Positions 10,490 to 63,719 are shown, counted from the stretch's first letter. The stretch: DNA of 64,000 nucleotides from an uncultured Tateyamaria sp. (GCF_947503045.1 NZ_CANNCF010000005.1:47085-111084); one strand, 5' to 3'. Program-made: numbers and translations. The notes: a model not told the origin generated them from the sequence alone.

Positions 10490-10597
10490 TACGGCTATCG
10501 CATGGTTACGGGTTTGCTGAACAAAGCGGGGTGGTTTGTGAACCACGAGCGGGTCGAACGCATTTGGCGACGCGAAAGGCTGAAGGTCCCGCAACGC
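10490..10597 (+). mobile_element. IS3-family transposase OrfB remnant (HTH region)
   Basis: Translates YGYRMVTGLLNKAGWFVNHERVERIWRRERLKVPQR, the typical IS3 OrfB N-terminal motif; no flanking coding sequence or TIRs seen. Confidence 0.8.
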
Positions 10598-10989
10598 CAC
10601 GCGAACTTGAGACGGACGACGACAAAGCAAAGTTCAACTAAAAGTTGGGCAACTGGTGAAGCAGAAGCCGGAAGACAAAAAGCCTTGAGTGATACCCTAA
10701 AGATGGCCGTGATCTTCGGTTTTAGCTGCCATAATCTGCACCTGTGCCAAGAAAGACGGTGGCCGAGGACCCCAAACTAAACCCGATTGTAATCGGACAA
10801 ATCCCGTTCGCAATACTGGCAAAAAATAGGCGATCACCGCAGCCTTGGCTGGTTAAAATGGCACCATCATTTCATCGATGCGTCCTTAGCTTGCCCCATC
10901 GGGTGGTTCAGGTTGGTACGTTCTTCCGGCATCGTGCGAAAAGTAAGGTGTGACTGTTTCGGCTTTGTTTTACGTGATTGCTTCGCGAT

Positions 10990-11140
10990 ACTTTGAATTG
11001 TGCCGCCAGCTTGCCAGTAGACTCGGGCGTTGCACAGCTCACAGCGACACCTCTGGTGCGGGCAGCAAGTCGGGCGCATTGCCGACAGGATCATCGTCAC
11101 CCACAGCCGCCTCGGCAAAGGCGCTAGCCTGTGGATAACT
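10990..11140 (+). pseudogene. Possible histidine kinase ATPase C-terminal remnant
   Basis: SRLG...TSGAG, then in a shifted frame GRIADRIIVTHSRLGKGASLWITF, resembling the G2 box and end of a HATPase_c domain. Confidence 0.3.
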
Positions 11141-11358
11141 TTCGGCTCAGACCTGAAAACTAAGGATCAATCCTTTAACTCTTCAAGAAGCTCCGGCGCA
11201 GAACAAAGTGCTAGGCGGTTCCCCTCCGGTGCACCAAAATGTCTGACGTCAGGCACCTGAAGCCACTTTTGGTGTACCAAGCACAGCGCACTTAGGATAA
11301 GCTTGACTCTGAGCAGGACCACACGATCAGGCGCATATTTTTCAATGAATCCGGATCG

Positions 11359-12078
11359 ATGTGTTATCTATACACATGTAGACTAGTAAGGGCAGATATG
11401 GACCAAGGGACGCGAAACATTCTCACCTGGATCGAAGTTACGATCTATGTATTTTTAGCAGCGATCATTGCTATTGGGTTTTATTTGGCGTTCTCCGATG
11501 AAGAATTCTTCCGCAACACTTACGTGCCTGAGGATGGAATATTAGAGACGTCTACAGCGATTATGTTGTTTTCGGCGGCAATCATATTGGCAATCCGCTT
11601 TCTTCGGGAACGTGAAACGCATCCGCGTTGTTTTTCAGTTTTCAGCGTTCTCATGATAGTAGCGCTGATTTTTGTGTCTGGGGAAGAAATATCTTGGGGT
11701 CAGAGAATCTTCGGCATAGAAACCGGAGAATTCTTCTTAGAAAATAATCGTCAGAGTGAAACAAATCTACACAACCTCGAGGTGCGGGGTGTTAACCTGA
11801 ACAAATTGGTCTTTGGCAAGATACTTGGTCTATTTCTTGTGGTTTTCTATCTAATCTTGCCTGTCCTTTATTCGCGGCGAAAGCGTGTACATCGATTGGT
11901 CTCCAGCCTTTATTTTCCAGTGCCCAAAATTCACCATGGCATTGCAATGTTGACCTTCGCGATAGTTATCGATCAGATTCCTTCGTCGAAACGCGGAGAA
12001 CTGAACGAGGTCTGTTTAGGCGCCTTTGCGCTGCTTCTTGTGACGAGCGCGCAGAACATTAAGCGACGGCGGGGGTAA
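11359..12078 (+). CDS. Multi-pass membrane protein of unknown function
   Basis: Several TM segments, EDGILE and GEEISWGQRIFG...NRQSETNLHN motifs; the true start may be MDQG at 11398; AT-richer codons. Confidence 0.7.
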   Translation: MCYLYTCRLVRADMDQGTRNILTWIEVTIYVFLAAIIAIGFYLAFSDEEFFRNTYVPEDGILETSTAIMLFSAAIILAIRFLRERETHPRCFSVFSVLMIVALIFVSGEEISWGQRIFGIETGEFFLENNRQSETNLHNLEVRGVNLNKLVFGKILGLFLVVFYLILPVLYSRRKRVHRLVSSLYFPVPKIHHGIAMLTFAIVIDQIPSSKRGELNEVCLGAFALLLVTSAQNIKRRRG

Positions 12079-13205
12079 TGAAGGGCTTTCGTTTTCAAGC
12101 GCTCACAGCTTGTTCACTATCCATCATACTGACGGCATACGTTTTAACCACTGAAGAGCCCCTCTCCTGGGAATTTGCTGTGGTAGAATCACCCGCCACA
12201 GGCGGTGACCCACTATTCATGACAGTGTTCGACTACGAGTCTAGCCCAGCCTCGGCACATGCGCCTGCCATTAGAACTTTTGAGGATCGTGTGCAGGTTG
12301 TGTGGTTCGAAGGCACACGGGAAAGTCACGAAGATGTCGTGATCAAGAGTGTGGATATCACTCTTAAGGACGGCCAGAGTGACTGGAAGGCAGAAGATGT
12401 CAGTGAGTTCTTTGATCGCCACGATTTGGTGAGAGCGACACAACCGTCACAGGAAATATGGTCGCTCGGAAACACGATACAATTCGCTGAGGGGGAGAAA
12501 GCGGCGCTTGCAACCGTGGTGTCCGTGGGTGGTTGGGCTGCGGCCTCCATCGCGCGGGTAGAGTTTGTGGGTGATGAAGTCTCAACGGTTCGTAAGCTGC
12601 GGCTTTCACCGATGTTAAACCGCTCATATCTGGTCCGGAATTCAACTCTGCGCTACGTGGATGGCAGCGTTGCCATCCCGGCTTACTTCGAGATGGGGAA
12701 TGCCTTTGGAGAACTTGTACGGCTAGATCAAGCGGGAAACGTGGTCGACAAACGTCGCATTACGCAAGGTCGCTTTGCAATTCAACCGGAAGTCGTAGTG
12801 CTGGGGCCTAAAAAGGCCGTGGCGCTATCGCGTAACTATGACAAGGATTCAGACAGGTTAATCGCGTCTTGGACCGAGGATGGCGGACAAAGTTGGGGTG
12901 CGCCAAAACTACTTGGGTTGCCAAATCCAAATTCGCCGGTCGCTGCAACCCGGCTGAATGATGGCCGCGTCTTGATGGCTTTCAACGATGATCCTACCCA
13001 TAATCACACGCTGACGCTCGCTATCTCTGCTGATGACGGGCATGAGTGGGAGCGTATTGCGGTGCTTGAAAACGGCGAAGGTGAAGTGCGCTATCCGGAT
13101 TTCGCGCAACTGCCTGATGGATCGCTTTTGTTAGTATACTCGTTCGGAAGTAAAAAGGGGATCCGGGCCCATGTACTCAATAACGCATGGGTTGATGCTC
13201 AATGA
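12078..13205 (+). CDS. Exported sialidase/BNR-repeat family protein
   Basis: Asp-boxes SWTEDGGQSW and ISADDGHEW, PNPNS, a C-terminal RYP motif, and a hydrophobic N-terminus; TAATG overlap. Confidence 0.75.
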   Translation: MKGFRFQALTACSLSIILTAYVLTTEEPLSWEFAVVESPATGGDPLFMTVFDYESSPASAHAPAIRTFEDRVQVVWFEGTRESHEDVVIKSVDITLKDGQSDWKAEDVSEFFDRHDLVRATQPSQEIWSLGNTIQFAEGEKAALATVVSVGGWAAASIARVEFVGDEVSTVRKLRLSPMLNRSYLVRNSTLRYVDGSVAIPAYFEMGNAFGELVRLDQAGNVVDKRRITQGRFAIQPEVVVLGPKKAVALSRNYDKDSDRLIASWTEDGGQSWGAPKLLGLPNPNSPVAATRLNDGRVLMAFNDDPTHNHTLTLAISADDGHEWERIAVLENGEGEVRYPDFAQLPDGSLLLVYSFGSKKGIRAHVLNNAWVDAQ

Positions 13206-13768
13206 ACTTTGACCTTTTGGCCTGGTTGATCATCGCTTTCTGGATCGGTTTCCGGGTGGCTCTGACTGTTTCGCAGCTTAAAGTAGCGCTTGGGCTAGGG
13301 GTAGTCGTTGCAGTCGCCAGCCTCGTATTGCCCAGTGTTATGCCGCTCATGGTGGCAATCCTCGCACCATTTGGTTTTCTTCTTCCGGCATTGGCCTTAC
13401 GCGACGTGCTTGGGCGTACGTGGATTGAGATCGCGCCATTTCACACCCTAGACGTCATTTTGGTGCTGATCGTTTCCACTCTTTTTATTGCAGCCTCCAT
13501 CGGAGTGTTTACCGTCGATCCTTATCGGATGGGCTATGGCCCTCTCGCTCCGGCAGTTGTGACCTTAGTTGGCATACTCTGGACACTTTGGCGGCGGCAT
13601 TTTTTCATTCTGGCGACGCTCCTTGCTGCTCAAATCACATGGACCTTTGGTTATTTGAGCACTAATTTCTTCGATTTAATTTTGCATGCGATACTAGTGC
13701 CCGTCTGTGTCATTTGGCTAATAAAACGAAAGCTCGTCGAGATTTCTCGCCACGCCCGGTCAGTGTGA
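13202..13768 (+). CDS. Hydrophobic membrane protein of unknown function
   Basis: 188 aa, almost entirely TM segments, DPYRMGY loop; ATGA overlap. Confidence 0.65.
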   Translation: MNFDLLAWLIIAFWIGFRVALTVSQLKVALGLGVVVAVASLVLPSVMPLMVAILAPFGFLLPALALRDVLGRTWIEIAPFHTLDVILVLIVSTLFIAASIGVFTVDPYRMGYGPLAPAVVTLVGILWTLWRRHFFILATLLAAQITWTFGYLSTNFFDLILHAILVPVCVIWLIKRKLVEISRHARSV

Positions 13769-14357
13769 CCAAGCGATAATACAAGACATAGCGTGTCCGT
13801 CGTCAGGGGTATTGGAACAGATGGCGGCCAGAGCTAAGAGAGGATCTGGCTCATCATTCTGTTTGATTTTGCGACGGTTTGGCGGAGAAGTAAGCGCCAG
13901 GTTCACGACGGCACAACTCCTGACCTGCTCCCCACTGCGGCCGGGTTTTAGAGTTCCATTCGCTTTCGTTTGCTGACAAAACCACGGCTTGGTCGGTTTT
14001 GAGACAACCGGATTGTCACCTTGATCGAAGCGGTCATCGTTTTTGATTAATCGATTGGTTGTTCCGCGAAGCATACATTCTCCAATGAAAAAATGCAGAA
14101 CAATGACACCAGCAGTTTGACGGCTATGGGCCGTCCCCGTGGAGAGGGGCGTGACCCCCCGGATGCCCGCTGTATCCGAGGTCGGCAATGGGCCCGTCGC
14201 GGGAATTTCTGATTTGTACCGGGCACTCGATGAACCGGCCCAGTCGAAAGGGCACGTCCTTCCTCAGTGCTCACCGATCATTAGCTACGAACATTTCACA
14301 TCTCTCCTTCAAACACTCACATTTGGACCGGCAAGCGCCTACGCCGGTTGAGCGAAG

Positions 14358-55286: not shown

Positions 55287-55475
55287 GCTGGCTCCGGCAA
55301 AGACTTCGCGAACCCGCCAACTCTAGGTTCAATGGAGGCATGTGACAATTTCATGCGGTGGCCAAAGCCGGCTGGAGCGACAGAAAGAGTGACAAAACCG
55401 ATAATTGGAGCTGCCGCAGATGAATGTCTGCAGAGAGGGCTGCGCCATTTTCAGCTGCAAAAACTAACACATGTA

Positions 55476-55483
55476 TAGATAGA
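55476..55483 (+). promoter_or_regulatory. TAGATAGA half-site upstream of the SDR-TetR operon
   Basis: ctaacacatgtaTAGATAGAc; imperfect version of the TCTA-N8-TAGA box. Confidence 0.4.
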
Positions 55484-55598
55484 CAAAGTCATTGATACAA
55501 ACCCGCGCTCGCATTATGTGAAGGCGGAAATGGCGTTATCGGTATGCCGCAGATGTAAAAGCGTAGCCAGCAATCGGGTTGGCAGAAAGGTGATCAGG

Positions 55599-56312
55599 AT
55601 GACGCAATCAGCAGGTTCCGCGATCATTGCAGGCTTTGGACCGGGGTTGGGTGAAGAGACGGCGCTCAGACTGGTTGATGAGGGCTTGCGCGTCGGGATG
55701 ATCGCGCGGTCTGTCGGCCCGCTTGAGAACGTGGCTGCAAAGCACGGGGCGGGATTGGTCCCGGTTCCGGCCGATGTGACCGATGCCGCAGCGGTTGAGT
55801 CCGCAGCGGTTGAGTCCGCAGTGGATCATGTGGAACGCACTCTTGGCCCAATCAAATGCGCTGTTTTCAATGCCGGGGCCTTTTTGAAAGGGTCGATCCT
55901 TGATTTCGCACCGAGTGAATTCGAACGCGCTTGGCGGGTTGGAACCTACGGCGGATTTGTATTCGGGCAGGCCATCGCAAAACGGATGGTAGCACGAGAG
56001 GAAGGCACGATCATCTTTTCGGGCGCGACGGCCTCCTTGCGTGGCAATGCCACCTCGTTCGGGTTTTCCGGGTCCAAATTCGGACTGCGATCCGTGGCGC
56101 AATGCATGGCGCGAGAGCTGGGGCCACGGGGCATTCACGTCGCCCATGTCGTCATTGACGGTGTCATCAAGGGCCACAAACACGCTGATCCCGGGGGAGA
56201 TGCACATATGGACCCCAAAAACCTTGCCGAAATCTACGTGAACCTCCACAAACAGCCACGCTCGACCTGGACGCACGAGCTTGATGTGCGTCCGTGGTGT
56301 GAAAAGTTCTGA
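55599..56312 (+). CDS. Short-chain dehydrogenase (SDR, atypical; no YxxxK tyrosine)
   Basis: IAGFGPGLG, FNAG, FSGATAS, SKFGLRSVAQ, VAHVVIDG, WTHELDVRP. Confidence 0.9.
   Translation: MTQSAGSAIIAGFGPGLGEETALRLVDEGLRVGMIARSVGPLENVAAKHGAGLVPVPADVTDAAAVESAAVESAVDHVERTLGPIKCAVFNAGAFLKGSILDFAPSEFERAWRVGTYGGFVFGQAIAKRMVAREEGTIIFSGATASLRGNATSFGFSGSKFGLRSVAQCMARELGPRGIHVAHVVIDGVIKGHKHADPGGDAHMDPKNLAEIYVNLHKQPRSTWTHELDVRPWCEKF
55786..55821 (+). repeat. In-frame 15-bp tandem duplication
   Basis: ccgcagcggttgagt x2 + ccgcag (AAVES-AAVES-A). Confidence 0.9.
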
Positions 56313-56326
56313 AGAAAGACGATCAA

Positions 56327-56860
56327 ATGACAGACACAAAAACCCGCATTCTCGACCTCGCCGAGAATCTGACGCAGTCAAAGGGCTTTAACGGGTTCAG
56401 CTATCTGGACCTTGCGGCGGAGGTTGGCATCAAGACGTCGAGCATCCACTACCATTACAAATCCAAGGCTGATCTGGCCCTGGCTTTGGTCGAGCGTCAC
56501 CGCGAGGCCCTCGAGGCTGCATTCAAGCGTCTTGACGACGACGTGGCGAACCCGGCGGACCGTCTTGAATCGATTGTGACGCATTTTAAAGGGTATATCG
56601 GCGAAGAGAAGATCTGCATGTGCGGCATGATGGCAGCGGAATTCGAAAGCATCAGCCCGGCTGTGCGCAAGGCCCTGGCGCTGTATTTTCGCGACTTTCA
56701 GAACTGGCTGGCCAAGCAGTTTTCGGCCCTTGGGCATCCAAACCCACCGGCAGTTGCGCTGCAATATGTGAGTGCGCTGGAAGGATCGCTACTGTTGGCG
56801 CGGTTGGAAGGGGACGCCTCTGTCGTGGATCGCTCACTTGACGGATTCGTGAACACATAG
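56327..56860 (+). CDS. TetR/AcrR family regulator (NemR/YxaF-like)
   Basis: RILDLAE...GFNGFSYLDLAAEVGIKTSSIHYHYKSK; ICMCG. Confidence 0.92.
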   Translation: MTDTKTRILDLAENLTQSKGFNGFSYLDLAAEVGIKTSSIHYHYKSKADLALALVERHREALEAAFKRLDDDVANPADRLESIVTHFKGYIGEEKICMCGMMAAEFESISPAVRKALALYFRDFQNWLAKQFSALGHPNPPAVALQYVSALEGSLLLARLEGDASVVDRSLDGFVNT

Positions 56861-56879
56861 GCTAAGTCACCACTTGATA

Positions 56880-56899
56880 TCTACTGGTATATAGATAGA
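56880..56899. promoter_or_regulatory. TCTA-N8-TAGA(TAGA) candidate TetR operator
   Basis: TCTActggtataTAGATAGA, about 35 bp upstream of the NTF2 gene. Confidence 0.6.
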
Positions 56900-56933
56900 T
56901 TGTCGGCAGAGAGACTTCCATTTGGAGAGACCA

Positions 56934-57353
56934 ATGCCCGACGGAACACAGACAGACCTGACAAAACTGACCGCAGCAGACGAAGCGCACAGCTTTGGCG
57001 AATATGCTGCAATCAAAGCCGCACTGGATATTTATCTGAAAGCGGCCAAACTGGGTGACGGCGCGTTGTCGCGCAGCGCCTTTTACGATCATGCTTATGT
57101 TGTCGGCTCGATCGCCGGCGAAACCTTCGAAATGGACGCCGATACATTTGGCGGTGCCGTGACCGAAGGTGGCGCGTCCGACAACATTCAGCACCATATC
57201 GCCTGGATCAACATCTCTGGTCCGGCGGCTGCTGCGCGCGTCGAAATCCTGGATTGGAGCGGTATGCGCTACACAGACTTCTTTGTGCTCTACAAGAAAG
57301 ACGGCACATGGAAGATCAGCAGCAAGGTTTTTGACTCGCACGCCAAAAACTGA
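56934..57353 (+). CDS. NTF2-like (Lumazine_bd_2-type) protein, cytoplasmic
   Basis: RSAFYDHA...GPAAAARVE...YTDFFVLYKKDGTWKISSKVF. Confidence 0.82.
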   Translation: MPDGTQTDLTKLTAADEAHSFGEYAAIKAALDIYLKAAKLGDGALSRSAFYDHAYVVGSIAGETFEMDADTFGGAVTEGGASDNIQHHIAWINISGPAAAARVEILDWSGMRYTDFFVLYKKDGTWKISSKVFDSHAKN

Positions 57354-57480
57354 ACGACGGCCTGCCGGGTCTTGTCCGGCAGGTTTCCTCCTCCCTCAAC
57401 TCAATAGCCTTTCGTTTTTGATGTCTGCACCGTCGGTGCAGGCCACTCGAAACGTGCGGCCCAACATAAGGAAATCAAAA

Positions 57481-58056
57481 ATGAGCCATCTGCCCGTACA
57501 AACCAAAGACACCGCCCCCGAAGCCAGCAAACCATTTCTGGAACAGGCCGAAAAAGCCTATGGGTTCATCCCGAACCTGACAGCCGTGTTCGCCGCATCG
57601 CCTGCGATGATCGAAGCCTATGGCGTCCTGTCCAGCCACTTTGAAAAGACCGATCTGACCCCGACCGAACGCCAGATCGTCATGATGACCAACAGCCGTC
57701 TGAACGGGTGTACCTACTGCATGTCCGCACACTCGACCATTTCGCAGATGCAAAAGGTTGACGCCGATGTCGTTGCCGCCCTGCGCAATGGCACAGAGAT
57801 CGCTGACCCCAAACTGCAAGCGCTGCATGTGTTCACGGCACAGCTGAACGAAGCACGCGGCTATGTCACACAAGCCCAGGTCGATGCGTTCCTCGCCGCC
57901 GGTTACACCGAGGCGAACATTCTGGATGTGATCCTTGGCACAGGTCTGAAGACGCTGTCCAACTACACCAACCACATTTCGGAAACACCCATCGACGCGC
58001 CGTTCCAGCCGACCGCGTGGGACGTGCCAAAAGAGAAAGTTGCCGTCAACGCCTAA
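57481..58056 (+). CDS. Carboxymuconolactone decarboxylase/AhpD-like protein
   Basis: YGFIPNL, NGCTYCMSAH (CxxC), KTLSNYTNH. Confidence 0.88.
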   Translation: MSHLPVQTKDTAPEASKPFLEQAEKAYGFIPNLTAVFAASPAMIEAYGVLSSHFEKTDLTPTERQIVMMTNSRLNGCTYCMSAHSTISQMQKVDADVVAALRNGTEIADPKLQALHVFTAQLNEARGYVTQAQVDAFLAAGYTEANILDVILGTGLKTLSNYTNHISETPIDAPFQPTAWDVPKEKVAVNA

Positions 58057-58079
58057 GCGGTGATGCCAGCAACCGGTGA

Positions 58080-58162
58080 GGAAACCGCAGAGTGGACACC
58101 ACATGCGGTTTCCAAACCAAAAGAAAGGTGACCAGAACGCCTCCGCCTGGTCACCTTTTTTC
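58080..58162. terminator. Two hairpins, including a probable bidirectional intrinsic terminator
   Basis: ggaaaccgca...tgcggtttcc, then aaaggtgaccag...ctggtcaccttt followed by a T-run, between convergent genes. Confidence 0.75.
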
Positions 58163-58191
58163 TTGTCAAATCCTGATCGGGCCGTTGCGCG

Positions 58192-58953
58192 TTACAGGTG
58201 TTGGCCGCCATTGATCGGGATTTCAGCCCCGTTCACGTAAGACGATTTTGAACTGCACAGGAAGCTGACCACTTCGGCCACTTCCTGAGGGCTGCCGAGC
58301 CGTTTCATCGGCACATCCCGTTCGACCATTTCCTCGGTGCCGGGGGACAGGATCGATGTGGCGATCTCGCCCGGCGAAACAGCGTTCACCCGCACGTTCC
58401 GACCGGCAAGCTCGAAAGCGAGTTCGCGGGTCAACGCCGACAGCCCGGCCTTTGACACCGCATAGGCCGCACCGGCAAAGGGGTGGACCTGCGTTCCCGC
58501 GATCGAGCTGACATTCACGATTGACCCCTTGGCCTGTTCCAGCGGTTCAAGCAGTTCCTGACACAGCATCAGCGGTGCGATCAGGTTGATCATCTGCACC
58601 TGCTGAAACGTCTCCAGGCTGGTTTCTGTCGCTGTCAAGCGCCCGCCATCCTTGGTCTTAGGCGAGATGCCCGCATTGTTGACCAGTGCATTCAGGCCGC
58701 GCCCGCCCAGTTGCTGGCGCAGGGCCTGGGCGGCTGCGCAGATCGAGTCCTTGTCACCCAGATCCACCTCGATATGTTTCACGATGCCTTCTGCCCAAGG
58801 GCAGACTTGGGAAAACGGCGTGCGGGCGAGCGTAAAGACCTCCCACCCCGAAGTGTGGAATTCCTTGACGATCTCGTGGCCAATGCCACGGCTGGCCCCG
58901 GTGACGGCGACGCAGGGTTTTTGGTACGGGCTGTTGTCGGCGGCTTTGGTCAT
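58192..58953 (-). CDS. Classical SDR oxidoreductase
   Basis: VTGASRGIG, LVNNAG, NVSS, YAVSK, VNAVSPG. Confidence 0.93.
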   Translation of the reverse strand: MTKAADNSPYQKPCVAVTGASRGIGHEIVKEFHTSGWEVFTLARTPFSQVCPWAEGIVKHIEVDLGDKDSICAAAQALRQQLGGRGLNALVNNAGISPKTKDGGRLTATETSLETFQQVQMINLIAPLMLCQELLEPLEQAKGSIVNVSSIAGTQVHPFAGAAYAVSKAGLSALTRELAFELAGRNVRVNAVSPGEIATSILSPGTEEMVERDVPMKRLGSPQEVAEVVSFLCSSKSSYVNGAEIPINGGQHL

Positions 58954-59125
58954 GGGGGTCCCTGTATGGGTTGCATCAGGTGTAAATATTGTTGAACAGG
59001 TGGATCCGGCATCGCGGTGGTTGCATTGGCTGGCAAGAGGTCGGTTTCGTTCATTCGAAACATCGGGCCGGGTGCACTGCCCTGGCGCCTTTTATATGCA
59101 GGATTGCCTCCTAGCACGTCAGCGA

Positions 59126-59536
59126 TCAGGCCGTAACCTTTTTCGCGGCCACGGCTTCGATTTCGATCATCAGGCCGGGCAGTGCCAGCTTGCTGATTTC
59201 GAAGATCGAAGAGATCGGCGGCGGGCTGGGCAGGAACGCCTTGCGTGCATCAGACACTTCTTGCCGGCGATCCATGTCCGTGACGTAGACGCTCATCTTG
59301 AAGACATCTTCGAAAGATGCGCCATTCGCTTCGAGAACGCTTTGAATGTTTTTCAGGGTCTGCTGGGTCTGCGCGAACATGTCATTTTCGCCGACCAGAT
59401 TGCCATCGATGTCGGTGGACCATTCTCCGGCGACAAAGATCAACTCGACATCACCGATCGTGACGGCAGCGGTGTGCGAATAAGGGCCCGCGGGCGGGGC
59501 AATCGTATCTGGGGTCTTCAGGTTGATAAGGCTCAC
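59126..59536 (-). CDS. RidA/YjgF family protein
   Basis: GPYSH, IFVAGE, QTQQTLKNI, MIEIEAVA. Confidence 0.9.
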   Translation of the reverse strand: MSLINLKTPDTIAPPAGPYSHTAAVTIGDVELIFVAGEWSTDIDGNLVGENDMFAQTQQTLKNIQSVLEANGASFEDVFKMSVYVTDMDRRQEVSDARKAFLPSPPPISSIFEISKLALPGLMIEIEAVAAKKVTA

Positions 59537-59866
59537 GGGGGATATCCTCTCTTGTCGTTCAGGTCATTCAACGGACAGCGCGCAACAGGCCCAGACGCAT
59601 TTGGACCCTGCCGGTTGCCTGTTGGTGGTGGCCTGGTCGGGCGCGCGTTCAATCATGTGGTGAACACCAATCTATGTGGCAGAAGAGGGCGCGGTACATA
59701 TCCCCATCGCGGTAGCAGCGTCGCCCGGTTTTGCACAATTTCTGTGCTTCGGGGGAATATACGGTGTGCGACACCTGCGGCACAAAAAGACCCAAAGCTG
59801 CCATGACCCGTCCCTATCCTGCACGTGTGCTGCGTCCTGATTGTGTGACAGACGAGGAGAAATCAC

Positions 59867-60723
59867 ATGAACATCATGCCCAATTCACAAGAAGCCCGCG
59901 ACATCGCTTATCACATGCACGCCTACACCAACGCCGCGCGCCATGCCGAAATTGGGCCGACGGTCATGACCGGCGGCGAGGGCATCTATGTCAAGGACAA
60001 CACCGGCAAGCGTTACATCGAAGCGATGGCAGGCCTTTGGAGCGTCGCGGTCGGGTTCAGCGAGCAGCGCCTGATCGATGCGGCGACGCGGCAGATGCAG
60101 GCCCTGCCATTTTACCACAACTTTACCCACAAGTCGCACGGACCGGCCATCGACCTTGCCGAACGGCTGATCAATATGGCGCCCGTCCCGATGAGCAAGG
60201 TGCACTACACCAACTCCGGCTCCGAGGCCAACGACACGATCATGAAACTGATCTGGTACCGCTCTAATGCGATGGGCAAGCCGGAAAAGAAAAAGATCAT
60301 TTCCCGCGAGCGGGCCTATCACGGTGTAACGGTGGGTGCAGCCAGCCTCAGCGGTCTGCCCTACATGCAGCAATCCTTTGATCTGCCGATTCCGGGGATT
60401 TTTCACACCACCTGTCCGCACTACTGGAAAGAGGGCCGCGACGGAGAAAGCGAAGAGCAATTCGCCACGCGTTGCGCGCAGGATCTGGACAATCTCATTC
60501 AAGCCGAAGGCCCCGAGACCGTTGCCGCCTTCTATTCCGAGCCGTTGATGGGCGCAGGCGGAGTCATCATTCCGCCCAAGACCTATTGGGAGAAAATCCA
60601 GGCCGTTCTCGACAAGTACGACATCCTGCTGGTGGCGGACGAAATCATCTGTGGGTTCGGCCGCACCGGGAAGATGTTTGGGAGTGAGACATTTGGCATC
60701 AGGCCGGATGTGATGATTATGTC
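59867..60723 (+). pseudogene. Class III aminotransferase, C-terminally truncated
   Basis: YIEAMAGLW, SGSEAND, YHGVT, EPLMGAGG, ADEIICGFGRTG, ending at PDVMIMS where the PLP-Lys region begins; roughly the last third is missing. Confidence 0.85.
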
Positions 60724-61740
60724 ACCGAAGCAGCCCTGTTGTCACGTGAGACCAAAACACCGGTGCGCGTACAATGGACGCGGAAAGACGACGTAAAGCA
60801 CTCGTTCTATCACACCATCTCGGCGCAAAAGATCGAAGTGGCGCTGGACGAAGCGGGCAAGGTCACCGGGTGGCATCATCGGGCGGTCCAACCGTCGATC
60901 CTGTCAACCTTTGCACCTGATGAAGGCAACGTTTTGCCGCTTGAGCAGGGTATGGGACTGACCGATTTGCCATTCGACATCCCGAACATCCGGGCCGAGA
61001 ACGGTAAGGCTTTGGCGCACACACGGATCGGCTGGTTCCGAGCCGTGTCGAACCTGCCGCATGCCTGGGCGATTGGGTCCTTTGTCGGAGAATTGGCCGA
61101 TGAACTGGGCAAGGATCAGCTGACCATGTGGCTGGAATTGCTCGGGACACCGCGCAAGCTGGACTATGCCGAAGCTGCGTTCCCAGAGAACTTCTGGAAC
61201 TATGGCGAGTCCTGGGACGAGTTCCCGATCGACACGGGCCGGATGGCCGACACGCTGAAGCTGGCCGCGGATGGCATCGGTTATGGCAAGGAGCTGCCGC
61301 CGGGTGAAGGGATTGGCCTCGCTGTGCATCGCAGCTTTGTGTCGTACGTGGCCTGCGCCGTGCATCTGAAGATCGTGGATGGCACCATCACCATCCCCGA
61401 AATGCACATGGCCATCGATTGCGGATTTGCCGCCAATCCCGAACGTATCGAAAGCCAGATGCAGGGCGCGGCCGTCATGGGCATGACCACGGCACTGCAT
61501 TCCGGGATCACCTTTGAGGACGGCGCGGTCGTGCAGGAGAACTTCTACGACTACGACGTTGTGCGGGCGGATAACTTCCCCCGCAAGGTTGTGACGCACA
61601 TCGCCAAGCACCCGTTCTCGGTGCCCGCGACAGGTGTAGGAGAGCCCGGCCTGCCACCGGTTCCGCCAGCCATCGCCAACGCGCTCTTCGCCGCGACAGG
61701 CGAACGGCGGCGTCGGCTGCCACTGGGCCTCGATGCATAA
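60715..61740 (+). pseudogene. Xanthine dehydrogenase/IorB-like molybdopterin-binding subunit, N-terminally truncated
   Basis: YVTEAALLSRETKTPVRVQWTRKDD, IGWFRAV, IESQMQGAAVMG, GVGEPGLPPVPPAIANALFAATG; no own start or N-terminal half. Confidence 0.85.
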
Positions 61741-61742
61741 AA

Positions 61743-61787
61743 CAAAAAAACCCCCCGCTGCGACCTGGTGCGCAGCGGGGGGTTTTA
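61743..61787 (+). terminator. Intrinsic terminator
   Basis: aaaaccccccgctgcg...cgcagcggggggtttt. Confidence 0.8.
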
Positions 61788-61882
61788 TCCGACCAGCAGT
61801 GAAGCGGTCCTGCATCAGATTGACAGATTAGGTGTTCTTCGTTTCGTGACCTCACCATCGTGGTACCCGGTCCAGAATCAAG

Positions 61883-61912
61883 AAGGGGGAGCCTGCAATA
61901 GGCTCCCCCTTC
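61883..61912 (-). terminator. Intrinsic terminator of the YHS gene
   Basis: aagggggagcct-gcaat-aggctccccctt. Confidence 0.75.
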
Positions 61913-61928
61913 TTTGTATTTCGCGCTC

Positions 61929-62417
61929 TTACAGGTCAGTTGCAGCAGTGCTGCGAATGTTGACCCAGTTTTCGTCCGCTTTGGTAATGATGCCTGTTTT
62001 GTCTTCCATGAACTGGTTCAGAACGTCGCCGTTCAGGAAAACGTACAGCTTGCCGTCGACAACAGCCGAGTACTCGGGGTTGCCGTCCAGTTTCTTGGCG
62101 AAGGCCACGCCGAATGTGCAGAAGCCGCCGTTCTGAGGCATGTACTTGGCGGGGCTCGCTTCGAACGCGGCTTTGTTGGCTTCGCTTGTGAAGTAATAGG
62201 CAACGCCATCATAGGCGGCAAAGAACTGAGGATCGCCGTCCACTTGCGTGCCGTCCAGCAGGGCAACGGGGTCAGCGCCGTGCAGGCCCAGCGGTGCGCC
62301 AGCATAGGTCATGCCGGGTGCTACATTGAATTCATCGGCGGCAAAGGCGGGGGTCATGGCGAAAGCTGCGCCCAGCAGAGACAGTGCGACGACGCCGGAT
62401 GTTGCGAGGTTTTTCAT
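61929..62417 (-). CDS. Exported YHS-domain protein (YHS/selenoprotein-like family)
   Basis: Signal peptide; LHGADPV, YYFTSEANKAAFEASPAKYMPQNGGFCTFG, VVDGKLYVF. Confidence 0.85.
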   Translation of the reverse strand: MKNLATSGVVALSLLGAAFAMTPAFAADEFNVAPGMTYAGAPLGLHGADPVALLDGTQVDGDPQFFAAYDGVAYYFTSEANKAAFEASPAKYMPQNGGFCTFGVAFAKKLDGNPEYSAVVDGKLYVFLNGDVLNQFMEDKTGIITKADENWVNIRSTAATDL

Positions 62418-62464
62418 AGGTCTATCCTTTTAGAGGTTTGGTCGTGAGTGGTAGCTTGCAGGTA

Positions 62465-62480
62465 TCTATCTACAGATAGA
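62465..62480. promoter_or_regulatory. Palindrome TCTATCT-AC-AGATAGA (TCTA-N8-TAGA) upstream of the YHS gene
   Basis: Perfect 7-bp arms, about 50 bp upstream of the start. Confidence 0.65.
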
Positions 62481-62558
62481 ATTTGTAGAGATACGGGTGG
62501 TGCAGCAAGTCAAACATTCGTTACCGATCGGTTCCGAATTCTGAGCGAGCAAACTGGC

Positions 62559-63026
62559 CTAGTTGTTTGTGTGAGAATCGTAGACTTTGCCGCTGATTTT
62601 CCATGCACCTTCCTCTTTGTAGAGGATGAAGAAGTCGGTGAATCTGTTGCCGCCCCAGTCAATGAATTCGACGCGCGCGGCTGCGGCAGGACCTGATACG
62701 TTGATCCACGCGATGTGGTGGCGCACGTTTTCTGACGGGCCGCCTTCGGCCACGGCGCCTGCAAATGTATCGGCGTCCAGATTGTACACCGTGCCGCCAA
62801 TCGAACCCAGGATATGTGCATGGTCATAAAAGGCGGAGCGCGTTAGAGGGCCTTCGCCTGTGCGCGCCGCTGTGATGTAGGGTTGCAGGGCTTCTTCGAT
62901 GGCGGCGTATTCGTCAAAGCTTTGTTGTTCAACAATTTTATCGTCTTCAGACGCGTAGACCGCTTGCAGTGGCAGGGCCAGCAGGCTGAATGCAAGTGCG
63001 GTACTCTTGAGTGTCTTACCAAGCAT
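62559..63026 (-). CDS. NTF2-like protein with signal peptide (paralog of 56934-57353)
   Basis: MLGKTLKSTALAFSLLALPLQAVYA signal; hand alignment gives 79/120 identical residues with the 56934 protein. Confidence 0.85.
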   Translation of the reverse strand: MLGKTLKSTALAFSLLALPLQAVYASEDDKIVEQQSFDEYAAIEEALQPYITAARTGEGPLTRSAFYDHAHILGSIGGTVYNLDADTFAGAVAEGGPSENVRHHIAWINVSGPAAAARVEFIDWGGNRFTDFFILYKEEGAWKISGKVYDSHTNN

Positions 63027-63068
63027 TTTGTTTCCTTTCAGGGAGGGTGATCGTGAGCGGTGGATGCG

Positions 63069-63365
63069 TCAGCTGAATGCGTGGGAATCCCAGGCTTTGC
63101 TTTCGATCATCCAGGTCTTGTCGTGCTTTTGCAGCACGTAGAGATCCGTGAACGACGAGCCTGTGCAATCGGTGAACTCCACCAGTGCTGCGGCTTCGTC
63201 TCCGACCAGATCAATCGAGGACACATGGTGCGCCCGGTCGTGGCAGGGCTGCGTTGAAGGGGTCGATGCCTCGATGGACTCGGTGAGGAGATTTTCGATG
63301 ATGGAGATATCAGCGCTAAGAACGCTGTCGATCAGTTGCGAAGGTGCGGAGCGTGATGCAAGCAT
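63069..63365 (-). CDS. Short divergent NTF2-like protein (possibly degenerate)
   Basis: C-terminal GDEAAALVE...FTDLYVLQKHDKTWMIESKAWDSH matches the paralogs; N-terminal half is shorter and divergent. Confidence 0.6.
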   Translation of the reverse strand: MLASRSAPSQLIDSVLSADISIIENLLTESIEASTPSTQPCHDRAHHVSSIDLVGDEAAALVEFTDCTGSSFTDLYVLQKHDKTWMIESKAWDSHAFS

Positions 63366-63396
63366 GGCCTTATCCTTTCAGCTACAATGTCTAACT

Positions 63397-63416
63397 TCTA
63401 TCTATATGCATGTAGA
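63397..63416. promoter_or_regulatory. TCTA-TCTA-N8-TAGA candidate TetR operator
   Basis: TCTATCTAtatgcatgTAGA, about 30 bp upstream of the 63365 start. Confidence 0.6.
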
Positions 63417-63719
63417 AAATCTGTGTAGGGTGAAAGTCGACTCCTCACAGAAAGTTCAATCACAGGTGTTCTGATGCGCCTGACGGTCATTCCCGAGAAG
63501 GTTGGCGAGGGGACCTATCTGCCTGCCCAAATGTAATGACAGCAATGCTGCAGCAGCAGCAAAGCTCAGCCCAGCAGGCGTTTGAGATATGACTTGCGTG
63601 CCTTGGCCGTGCTGTCTGAAAACGGATGCGCGTGGTGCAGCGCCGGATGTCATGCGGCGCGCATCAAGTGCGACACCTGTAACAAACGACAGTTCGGGGA
63701 ATGGGTGACGCGTTGACGC

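Follow-up and report, generated by a model that had tools for sequence, protein, structure and literature searches.

In this work we analysed a stretch of 64,000 nucleotides from an uncultured Tateyamaria sp. (GCF_947503045.1, NZ_CANNCF010000005.1:47085-111084), hereafter the window, which corresponds to C5:47085-111084 of an assembly of 4.74 Mb with 60.7% GC. The subject is a predicted regulon of a TetR-family repressor, marked by copies of the inverted repeat TCTA-N8-TAGA. Genes were identified with Pfam and NCBIfam profiles, which bore out the calls of a preliminary description (a short-chain dehydrogenase or SDR, a TetR regulator, three NTF2-like proteins, an AhpD-like protein and a YHS protein), while signal peptides were assigned to NTF2b and YHS only by eye. 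The genes and putative operators (S1 to S4) of the locus are the following.

55462..55481, plus strand: S4, degenerate putative operator AACTAACACATGTATAGATA; 12.8 bits, rank 9 in the genome; 117 bp 5' of the SDR1-tetR operon
55599..56312, plus strand: SDR1, short-chain dehydrogenase; Pfam adh_short 97.5 bits; 14 bp 5' of tetR, same operon
56327..56860, plus strand: TetR-family repressor with invariant C97-x-C99; TetR_N 39.2 bits, TetR_C_13_2 39.2 bits
56874..56901, plus strand: sigma-70-like promoter TTGATA-16-TAGATT around S1; consensus scan, 9/12 matches
56878..56897, no strand: S1, putative operator TATCTACTGGTATATAGATA, core TCTA-N8-TAGA at 56880-56895; 25.9 bits, rank 2
56934..57353, plus strand: NTF2a, cytoplasmic PF12893 (Lumazine_bd_2) protein; Pfam 72.5 bits
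57481..58056, plus strand: CMD/AhpD-like protein with CTYCMSAH (CxxCxxxH); PF02627 34.2 bits; PDB 6e8l AhpD, E 2.6e-37
58127..58162, plus strand: terminator-like hairpin and T-run closing the NTF2a-CMD unit; inverted repeat I10, arms 58116-58135 and 58147-58166
61929..62417, minus strand: YHS-domain (seleno)protein family member, Cys form; NF041384 103.8 bits against a cutoff of 70; PF04945
62463..62482, no strand: S2, putative operator TATCTATCTACAGATAGAAT, core 62465-62480; 19.8 bits, rank 4; 47 bp 5' of YHS
62559..63026, minus strand: NTF2b, PF12893 paralog with a signal-like N-terminus (by eye); Pfam 71.8 bits
63069..63365, minus strand: NTF2c, short divergent PF12893 paralog; Pfam 32.2 bits
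63399..63418, no strand: S3, putative operator TATCTATATGCATGTAGAAA, core 63401-63416; 26.1 bits, rank 1; 35 bp 5' of NTF2c

The three boxes first reported at 56880, 62465 and 63401 are all present, and a fourth copy of TCTA-N8-TAGA was found at 11367-11382. These four copies compare with 0.03 expected from dinucleotide-preserving shuffles, so that the initial estimate of 0.4 copies per 64 kb proves too generous. Genome-wide there are eight copies in 4.74 Mb, four of them on the contig of the window. The shorter motif TAGATAGA occurs in the window at 55476, 56892, 62465 (minus strand) and 63397 (minus strand), plus 11846 within a gene, that is five times against 0.17 expected, and TATAGATAGA, common to S1, S3 and S4, has three genome copies, all at the regulon locus. 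Window boxes are of the CTACATACATGTAG type, and the core of S3 is a palindrome in seven of its eight pairs. From core box to start codon we measured 38 bp for NTF2a (ATG 56934), 47 bp for YHS (ATG 62417, minus strand) and 35 bp for the short NTF2c (ATG 63365, minus strand), in keeping with the 30-50 bp given before. The copies resemble one another over 20 nt and no further, their flanks being unrelated (comparison I9), and a mobile-repeat origin of the box was rejected on that ground. An extra TCTA/TAGA unit had been ascribed to every copy; it is found at S1, where TAGATAGA overlaps the -10-like hexamer and the extra TAGA is probably part of that hexamer, and it does not stand as a general feature of the box, many orthologs having GGTCAG behind the palindrome instead.

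Conservation of the motif in front of orthologs had been set beforehand as a test of the idea, and the idea withstood it. A scan with one genome per species gave 36 ortholog loci (cited here by L numbers) with TetR orthologs of 47-68% identity, and in these loci, which span several phyla, the box adjoins orthologs of tetR, NTF2 and CMD. At a threshold of at least 14 bits the 36 loci hold 86 boxes, 27 of which are training sites of the matrix, against 1.7 +/- 1.1 in block shuffles. The consensus is a 16-18 bp palindrome, yCTAyAT-N2-ATrTAGr, of which TCTA-N8-TAGA is the core. Thirty-one boxes lie at most 90 bp 5' of tetR, usually at some 15-50 bp, and commonly end 15 bp before the start codon, which is the position expected for autoregulation; another 27 lie 22-80 bp past the tetR stop, usually at some 25 bp, ahead of the next gene, and a palindrome like ATCTACATACATGTAGGT or TCTATCTACATATAGATAGA is present in the post-tetR spacer of nearly every locus. 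S1 holds the very position occupied by the box in these 27 spacers. The first gene behind a box is NTF2 in 25 loci, and the shared gene order is tetR followed by PF12893, often then CMD, a membrane protein, VOC or glutathione S-transferase (GST), so that NTF2a is, as far as gene order can tell, the signature target of the predicted regulon.

A position matrix trained on the ortholog loci alone, with the window genome left out, was then run over the window genome. The window sites at 63399, 56878, 11365 and 62463 took ranks 1-4 among 4.74 million positions (26.1, 25.9, 23.4 and 19.8 bits), a site outside the window (C5:120423-120442) came sixth and S4 (55462) ninth. Other matrix hits, C6:71347, C1:969700 and C4:171306, fall within coding regions and were taken as chance. 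S4 aligns gap-free with a degenerate box 5' of the same SDR1-tetR pair (65% identical) in a metagenome-assembled genome (MAG) of the Rhizobiaceae (L024); the half-site noted earlier at 55476 matches that box position for position. S4, which is a probable weak autoregulatory site, is also similar to the left halves, likewise degenerate, of autoregulatory boxes elsewhere, for example AACTGATATACATATAGGTG.

Among alphaproteobacterial Rhodobacteraceae the carriers of the module are Roseovarius, Octadecabacter, Tateyamaria and Ruegeria; further carriers are found in Rhizobiaceae, Hyphomicrobiaceae, Rhodospirillales and Stappiaceae, in Granulosicoccaceae and other gammaproteobacterial MAGs, in Leptolyngbya-type cyanobacteria, and in delta-proteobacterial, Acidimicrobiales and Pirellulaceae MAGs. 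The ortholog records are marine without exception, and many are MAGs; cultured carriers include Roseovarius albus CECT 7450, Octadecabacter dasysiphoniae G9-8 and Leptolyngbya sp. Heron Island J. The TetR was found in just 2 of 37 sampled Tateyamaria genomes, namely the window genome and one other (64% identity), and in 2 of 301 sampled genomes of the family, while a PF12893 gene of the regulon type is present in 3 of 41 genus genomes, including both with the TetR. The ortholog group is narrow, with eight cluster representatives at E <= 1e-30 among 1.84 billion, of which only two are full-length matches above 50% identity. A tblastn search of the TetR against PLSDB gave no plasmid match at 1e-30. 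The tetR-NTF2 cassette is one that has spread horizontally. Rare as it is, it is common to Alphaproteobacteria, Gammaproteobacteria, filamentous cyanobacteria and other marine lineages, which points to a shared marine chemical stress.

The regulator has an N-terminal helix-turn-helix domain (PF00440, 39.2 bits against a cutoff of 24), a C-terminal domain matched by TetR_C_13_2 (39.2 bits) and TetR_C_13 (27.4 bits), both at or above the cutoff of 27, and full-length matches to the TetR structures 3on4 and 2g7s. Palindromic sites at its own and adjacent promoters, a trait by which the TetR family is recognised, were found (31 sites 5' and 27 sites 3' of tetR; S4). It is not an AcuR, scoring 29.4 bits with NF051457 against a cutoff of 247. 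The CxC noticed in the preliminary description is C-M-C at C97 and C99, and C97-x-C99-G-M is invariant in 37 of 37 TetR orthologs. In the same set the recognition helix S38-S39-I40-H41-Y42, with K45 and K47, is kept in at least 95%, which agrees with the conservation of the operator core. In an alignment with E. coli NemR (BLASTP, 24% identity over 120 residues, E 4e-9), C97 falls on the sensing Cys106. Beyond the orthologs, the wider subfamily counts 1,495 representatives at E <= 1e-10, CxC being kept in 119 of the best 150; it looks like a large CxC TetR subfamily, and no characterised member was found in the literature searched. TetR paralogs within the genus (L003-L020; 30-38% identity) carry a recognition helix of the SIHYHF type and an LCLC motif, and adjoin CTAC-N6-GTAG-like boxes.

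What was computed is the box itself, how rare and how conserved it is, where it lies and that it co-occurs with this TetR. We hold with high confidence that these findings mark one regulon of TetR and its operator, as had been proposed from the TCTA-N8-TAGA repeat and as the conservation in 36 loci and the independent matrix ranking support. Sites do lie between 55460 and 63420, the span first given; as limits these coordinates do not stand, since the regulon reaches past them.

The nearest characterised systems are NemR and the GbaA of S. aureus, TetR repressors that contain Cys, respond to electrophiles and control genes for glyoxalases and oxidoreductases (PMC3739934; PMC8693949). The likeness to the nemR-nemA-gloA system of E. 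coli is manifold: NemR is a TetR autorepressor that also matches the TetR_C_13 and TetR_C_13_2 models, a Cys is kept here at the sensing Cys106 position (C97), the operator is a palindrome built from TAGA/TCTA units, and there is a glyoxalase-like gene among the targets here and an old yellow enzyme (OYE) reductase in one ortholog locus. In contrast, the TetR of the window is 24% identical to NemR, too little to call the two orthologs, and has a second invariant Cys, completing the CxC. The NemR box TAGACCGACTGGTCTA, read 5' of E. coli nemR (TAGACC-N4-GGTCTA), has its half-sites in the inverse order and other inner bases than the box described here (TCTAyAT-N2-ATrTAGA), so that the earlier comparison with NemR stands for the units and needs correcting for this inverse order. 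Two further differences are the signature target, a PF12893 NTF2-like protein that is not found in E. coli nemRA-gloA, and the exported arm (NTF2b and YHS, with signal sequences judged by eye).

Palindromes of the NemR type, TAGACCGATTGGTCTA and TAGACTGATCGGTCTA, are present elsewhere in the window genome (C1:266256-266271 and C1:1012044-1012059) and probably mark a NemR/RutR-like regulon distinct from the present one, in which the half-sites stand the other way round. Two TAGATAGA...TCTATCTA palindromes, 90 bp apart, lie on a contig of lower GC (C7:109229-109244 and C7:109319-109336) and may be the operator pair of another regulator.

GbaA is likewise a TetR repressor with two conserved Cys, and controls glyoxalase, oxidoreductase and SDR-type genes in resistance to electrophile and disulfide stress (PMC8693949). 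Set beside GbaA by description, not by sequence, the present regulator differs in the spacing of its Cys (CxC here, 50 residues apart in GbaA, C55 and C104), in its operator and in its set of targets. With LmrA/QdoR (YxaF), the flavonoid-responsive TetRs of B. subtilis, it shares its best Pfam C-terminal match, TetR_C_13_2 at 39.2 bits, and a weak match to the YxaF structure 1sgm (E 1.4e-4), but the relationship is distant and the gene set unlike theirs. The targets of LmrA/QdoR are an efflux pump and a quercetin dioxygenase. The closest solved relatives are the structural-genomics TetRs 3on4 (E 5.7e-28) and 2g7s (E 5.9e-22), which share the recognition-helix motif (SIHYHF / SIHHHF); at the site of the CxC, 2g7s keeps C-V-C, and 3on4 has C-L-G instead. 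Neither was assigned a function by its depositors, and no operator or regulon of either is described in the sources searchable.

The genes that stand directly behind boxes in other genomes include OYE (Oxidored_FMN), DUF3237, Tautomerase_2, Flavodoxin_2 (azoreductase/NQO type) and AhpC/TSA-like genes, as well as glutaredoxin, zinc-dependent alcohol dehydrogenase, Cupin_2, GST, VOC/glyoxalase and CMD/AhpD-like genes. Known regulons of electrophile and quinone stress have this same repertoire. A function in electrophile or oxidant defence, suggested before, is strengthened by the OYE, azoreductase-type, glutaredoxin, peroxiredoxin-like, GST, glyoxalase and tautomerase genes linked to boxes and by the place of C97 at NemR Cys106, and is in our view probable. 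From these box-linked detoxification genes and the invariant CxC aligned with NemR Cys106 we therefore favour, with moderate confidence, an autoregulated NemR/GbaA-like repressor of an electrophile and quinone detoxification regulon, released by thiol-reactive electrophiles. That the release works through a Cys-based switch in the TetR is conceivable, and on this part we lean slightly to the other side.

TetR binding, repression, the class of inducer and sensing by Cys are what we infer in the following scheme. A TetR dimer would bind the 16-18 bp palindrome, which overlaps or lies within the promoters of the target genes; at S1 the palindrome fills the spacer of TTGATA-16-TAGATT, and a bound repressor would thus block RNA polymerase. 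Through the weak S4 the TetR would repress its own operon, SDR1-tetR. The other probable targets in the window are NTF2a-CMD/AhpD-like, NTF2c-NTF2b (with NTF2b exported) and the exported YHS, and outside it the fourth NTF2 paralog, a membrane protein and a Nu-class GST. A thiol-reactive electrophile (quinone-like, an alpha,beta-unsaturated carbonyl or hypohalous acid) would modify C97/C99 or bind a pocket that they line; the repressor would then be released and reductive and thiol-dependent detoxification induced in cytoplasm and periplasm.

Several observations weigh against this scheme. Detoxification by the PF12893 core target we infer from its neighbour genes, and the alignment that places C97 at NemR Cys106 is at only 24% identity. 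Thiol switches in GbaA left its DNA binding in vitro unchanged (PMC8693949), so a conserved Cys is no proof of a thiol switch. It should be noted that the search patterns for orthologs included KICMCGM, and part of the CxC invariance is therefore ascertainment; many orthologs carry KFCLCGM and must have entered via the other search pattern. S4 is weak and lies 117 bp from the start codon, a simple consensus scan gave no sigma-70-like promoter at S2 or S3, and the membrane protein after S5, a further operator-like site in the window taken up below, is without a homolog in the 36 ortholog loci. Finally, the glyoxalase-like gene outside the window was dropped as a sure operon member with the GST found there, a terminator-like hairpin standing between them.

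The same repressor-operator regulon could instead respond to a specific non-covalent small molecule, phenolic, flavonoid-like or another marine natural product, as is the case for LmrA/QdoR; its genes would then form a pathway dedicated to transforming that compound, and the CxC would do no more than line a pocket or serve the structure. Most TetRs sense their ligands non-covalently, the best C-terminal domain match is TetR_C_13_2, described as 'LmrA/YxaF-like', the PF12893, DUF3237 and tautomerase proteins resemble small-molecule enzymes or binders, and the uniformly marine origin of the ortholog records, many of them MAGs, would suit such a compound. This is a serious rival, if an unlikely one: the gene content around the constant TetR-NTF2 core varies by genome without a fixed pathway, the variable genes are mostly those of generic thiol and redox detoxification (GST, glutaredoxin, peroxiredoxin, OYE, azoreductase type, glyoxalase), and the invariant CxC sits at the position of NemR Cys106.

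A response to a metal (copper) or one related to selenium, with the CxC binding Cu(I) or a soft metal and YHS as a periplasmic metal handler, is very improbable. YHS domains do occur in copper ATPases, and the family of the YHS protein here is one of (seleno)proteins. ArsR- and CopY-type sensors bind Cu(I), Cd or Pb through CxC motifs, and among TetRs there is one linked to copper, ComR (PMC11672702). Yet no metal efflux pump, chaperone or oxidase stands behind any box in the 36 loci, only 2 of 37 loci contain a YHS gene, ComR is marginally similar to our TetR (E 0.004), and direct metal binding by ComR has not been shown, according to the review (PMC11672702). Least credible of all is that the box is no TetR operator but a promoter element recognised by an alternative sigma factor, a site for some other regulator, or a small element that is repeated or mobile, for although TAGATAGA overlaps the -10-like hexamer at S1 and the window boxes are better conserved in their right half than in their left, the box is a symmetric palindrome in orthologs (ACCTACAT-AC-ATGTAGGT), travels with this tetR across phyla both before and after the gene, is alike over 20 nt only among its copies, with unrelated flanks, and lies within the promoter spacer without forming hexamers alone.

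Under the electrophile-released repressor the signature target deserves attention in its own right. The four PF12893 paralogs score 72.5, 71.8, 32.2 and 79.6 bits, which places them in the family. An AlphaFold2 model of NTF2a (pLDDT 91) has the NTF2 cone fold, with a target-normalised TM-score of 0.88-0.89 to 3blz and 3fka; its nearest structures, 3blz, 3fka (Ruegeria pomeroyi) and 3duk, are all NTF2-like proteins 'of unknown function', and more distant matches are ketosteroid-isomerase and SnoaL-like folds. The PF12893 proteins of the module are 55-85% identical across phyla, with invariant polar residues E17, Y34, R47, D52/H53, E104, R112, T114-D115, K127, K131 and H136. NTF2b has orthologs of 84-85% identity in L028, L029 and L031. 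Homologs of NTF2c (53-63% identical) occupy the same position behind a box in L028, L030 and L031, and this conservation ruled out NTF2c as an eroded copy.

In two loci (L049:6609-7118 and L052:6585-7085) the NTF2 gene that follows tetR is extended in frame at its N-terminus by a signal-peptide-like stretch, and also has an internal ribosome-binding site and ATG where the mature domain starts; a single gene may yield both exported and cytoplasmic forms. DUF3237 and a membrane protein of about 135-148 aa, with three predicted hydrophobic segments and no Pfam family, recur in the module (L071:7065-8036, L069:7659-8201 and L058:8459-8905).

No description of this operator, of this regulator or of PF12893 in such a role was found in the literature searched. 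The mechanism itself is that of an ordinary TetR switch; what lifts the system above the routine is that it is conserved across phyla yet rare, that its CxC is invariant, and that the signature target, an NTF2-like protein not yet characterised, comes in cytoplasmic and exported forms. The analysis gives PF12893, DUF3237, the membrane protein with three segments and the exported YHS (seleno)protein a regulatory and physiological context (electrophile, quinone and oxidant defence), and it defines an operator and a narrow ortholog group inside the much larger CxC TetR subfamily. A bolder proposal, which we offer tentatively and think somewhat doubtful, is that a marine cassette for electrophile defence, mobile by horizontal transfer, has PF12893 as its key effector, which would act as a new detoxifying enzyme or as a scavenger in both cytoplasm and periplasm; in some genomes a single gene with two start sites might supply both compartments. 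Control would lie with a large unrecognised thiol-switch subfamily of CxC TetRs that uses operators of the CTAC-N6-GTAG type.

The remaining genes of the locus and the more distant sites can be dealt with briefly. The CMD/AhpD-like protein combines a CMD domain with the CxxCxxxH redox motif, which assigns it to the AhpD-like/CMD proteins, and scores 77.5 with TIGR01926, just below the cutoff of 81.8. The YHS protein is judged by eye to be exported from its signal-like N-terminus; a YHS-NTF2-GST cluster recurs in one gammaproteobacterial MAG. SDR2 and RidA (58192-59536) were left out as regulon members, having no box. On the same contig, 10 kb past the window, the operator-like site at C5:120423-120442 lies 40 bp 5' of the fourth PF12893 paralog, behind which, on the same strand, come the genes of a conserved membrane protein without a Pfam family and of a GST of the Nu class (YfcG/YghU-like). 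The VOC/glyoxalase-like gene of this cluster stands after the terminator-like hairpin; it scores 95.2 with TIGR00068 against a cutoff of 120, and so has the VOC/glyoxalase fold only and is not a GloA equivalog. The fourth core copy in the window belongs to the following site.

11365..11384, no strand: S5, operator-like site TATCTATACACATGTAGACT; 23.4 bits, rank 3; 13 nt before the open reading frame (ORF) 11398-12078

This ORF (11398-12078) encodes a 226-aa membrane protein in a low-GC patch, which is a possible target of the regulon. The patch, at window positions 10500-13800 and with 44-52% GC, holds an IS3-type transposase fragment, the ORF of the 226-aa membrane protein, a BNR_2 (sialidase-fold) gene and a second membrane-protein ORF.

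Two minor observations concern the sequence of the locus itself. SDR1 contains an in-frame 15-bp tandem duplication at 55786-55825, giving AAVES-AAVES. Between the two halves of the regulon, at 60715-60723 (ORFs 59867-60796 and 60739-61740), the frame of a class-III aminotransferase is joined to a C-terminal piece of a molybdoenzyme of the aldehyde-oxidase/xanthine-dehydrogenase type, the two being cut short at this deletion or fusion junction.

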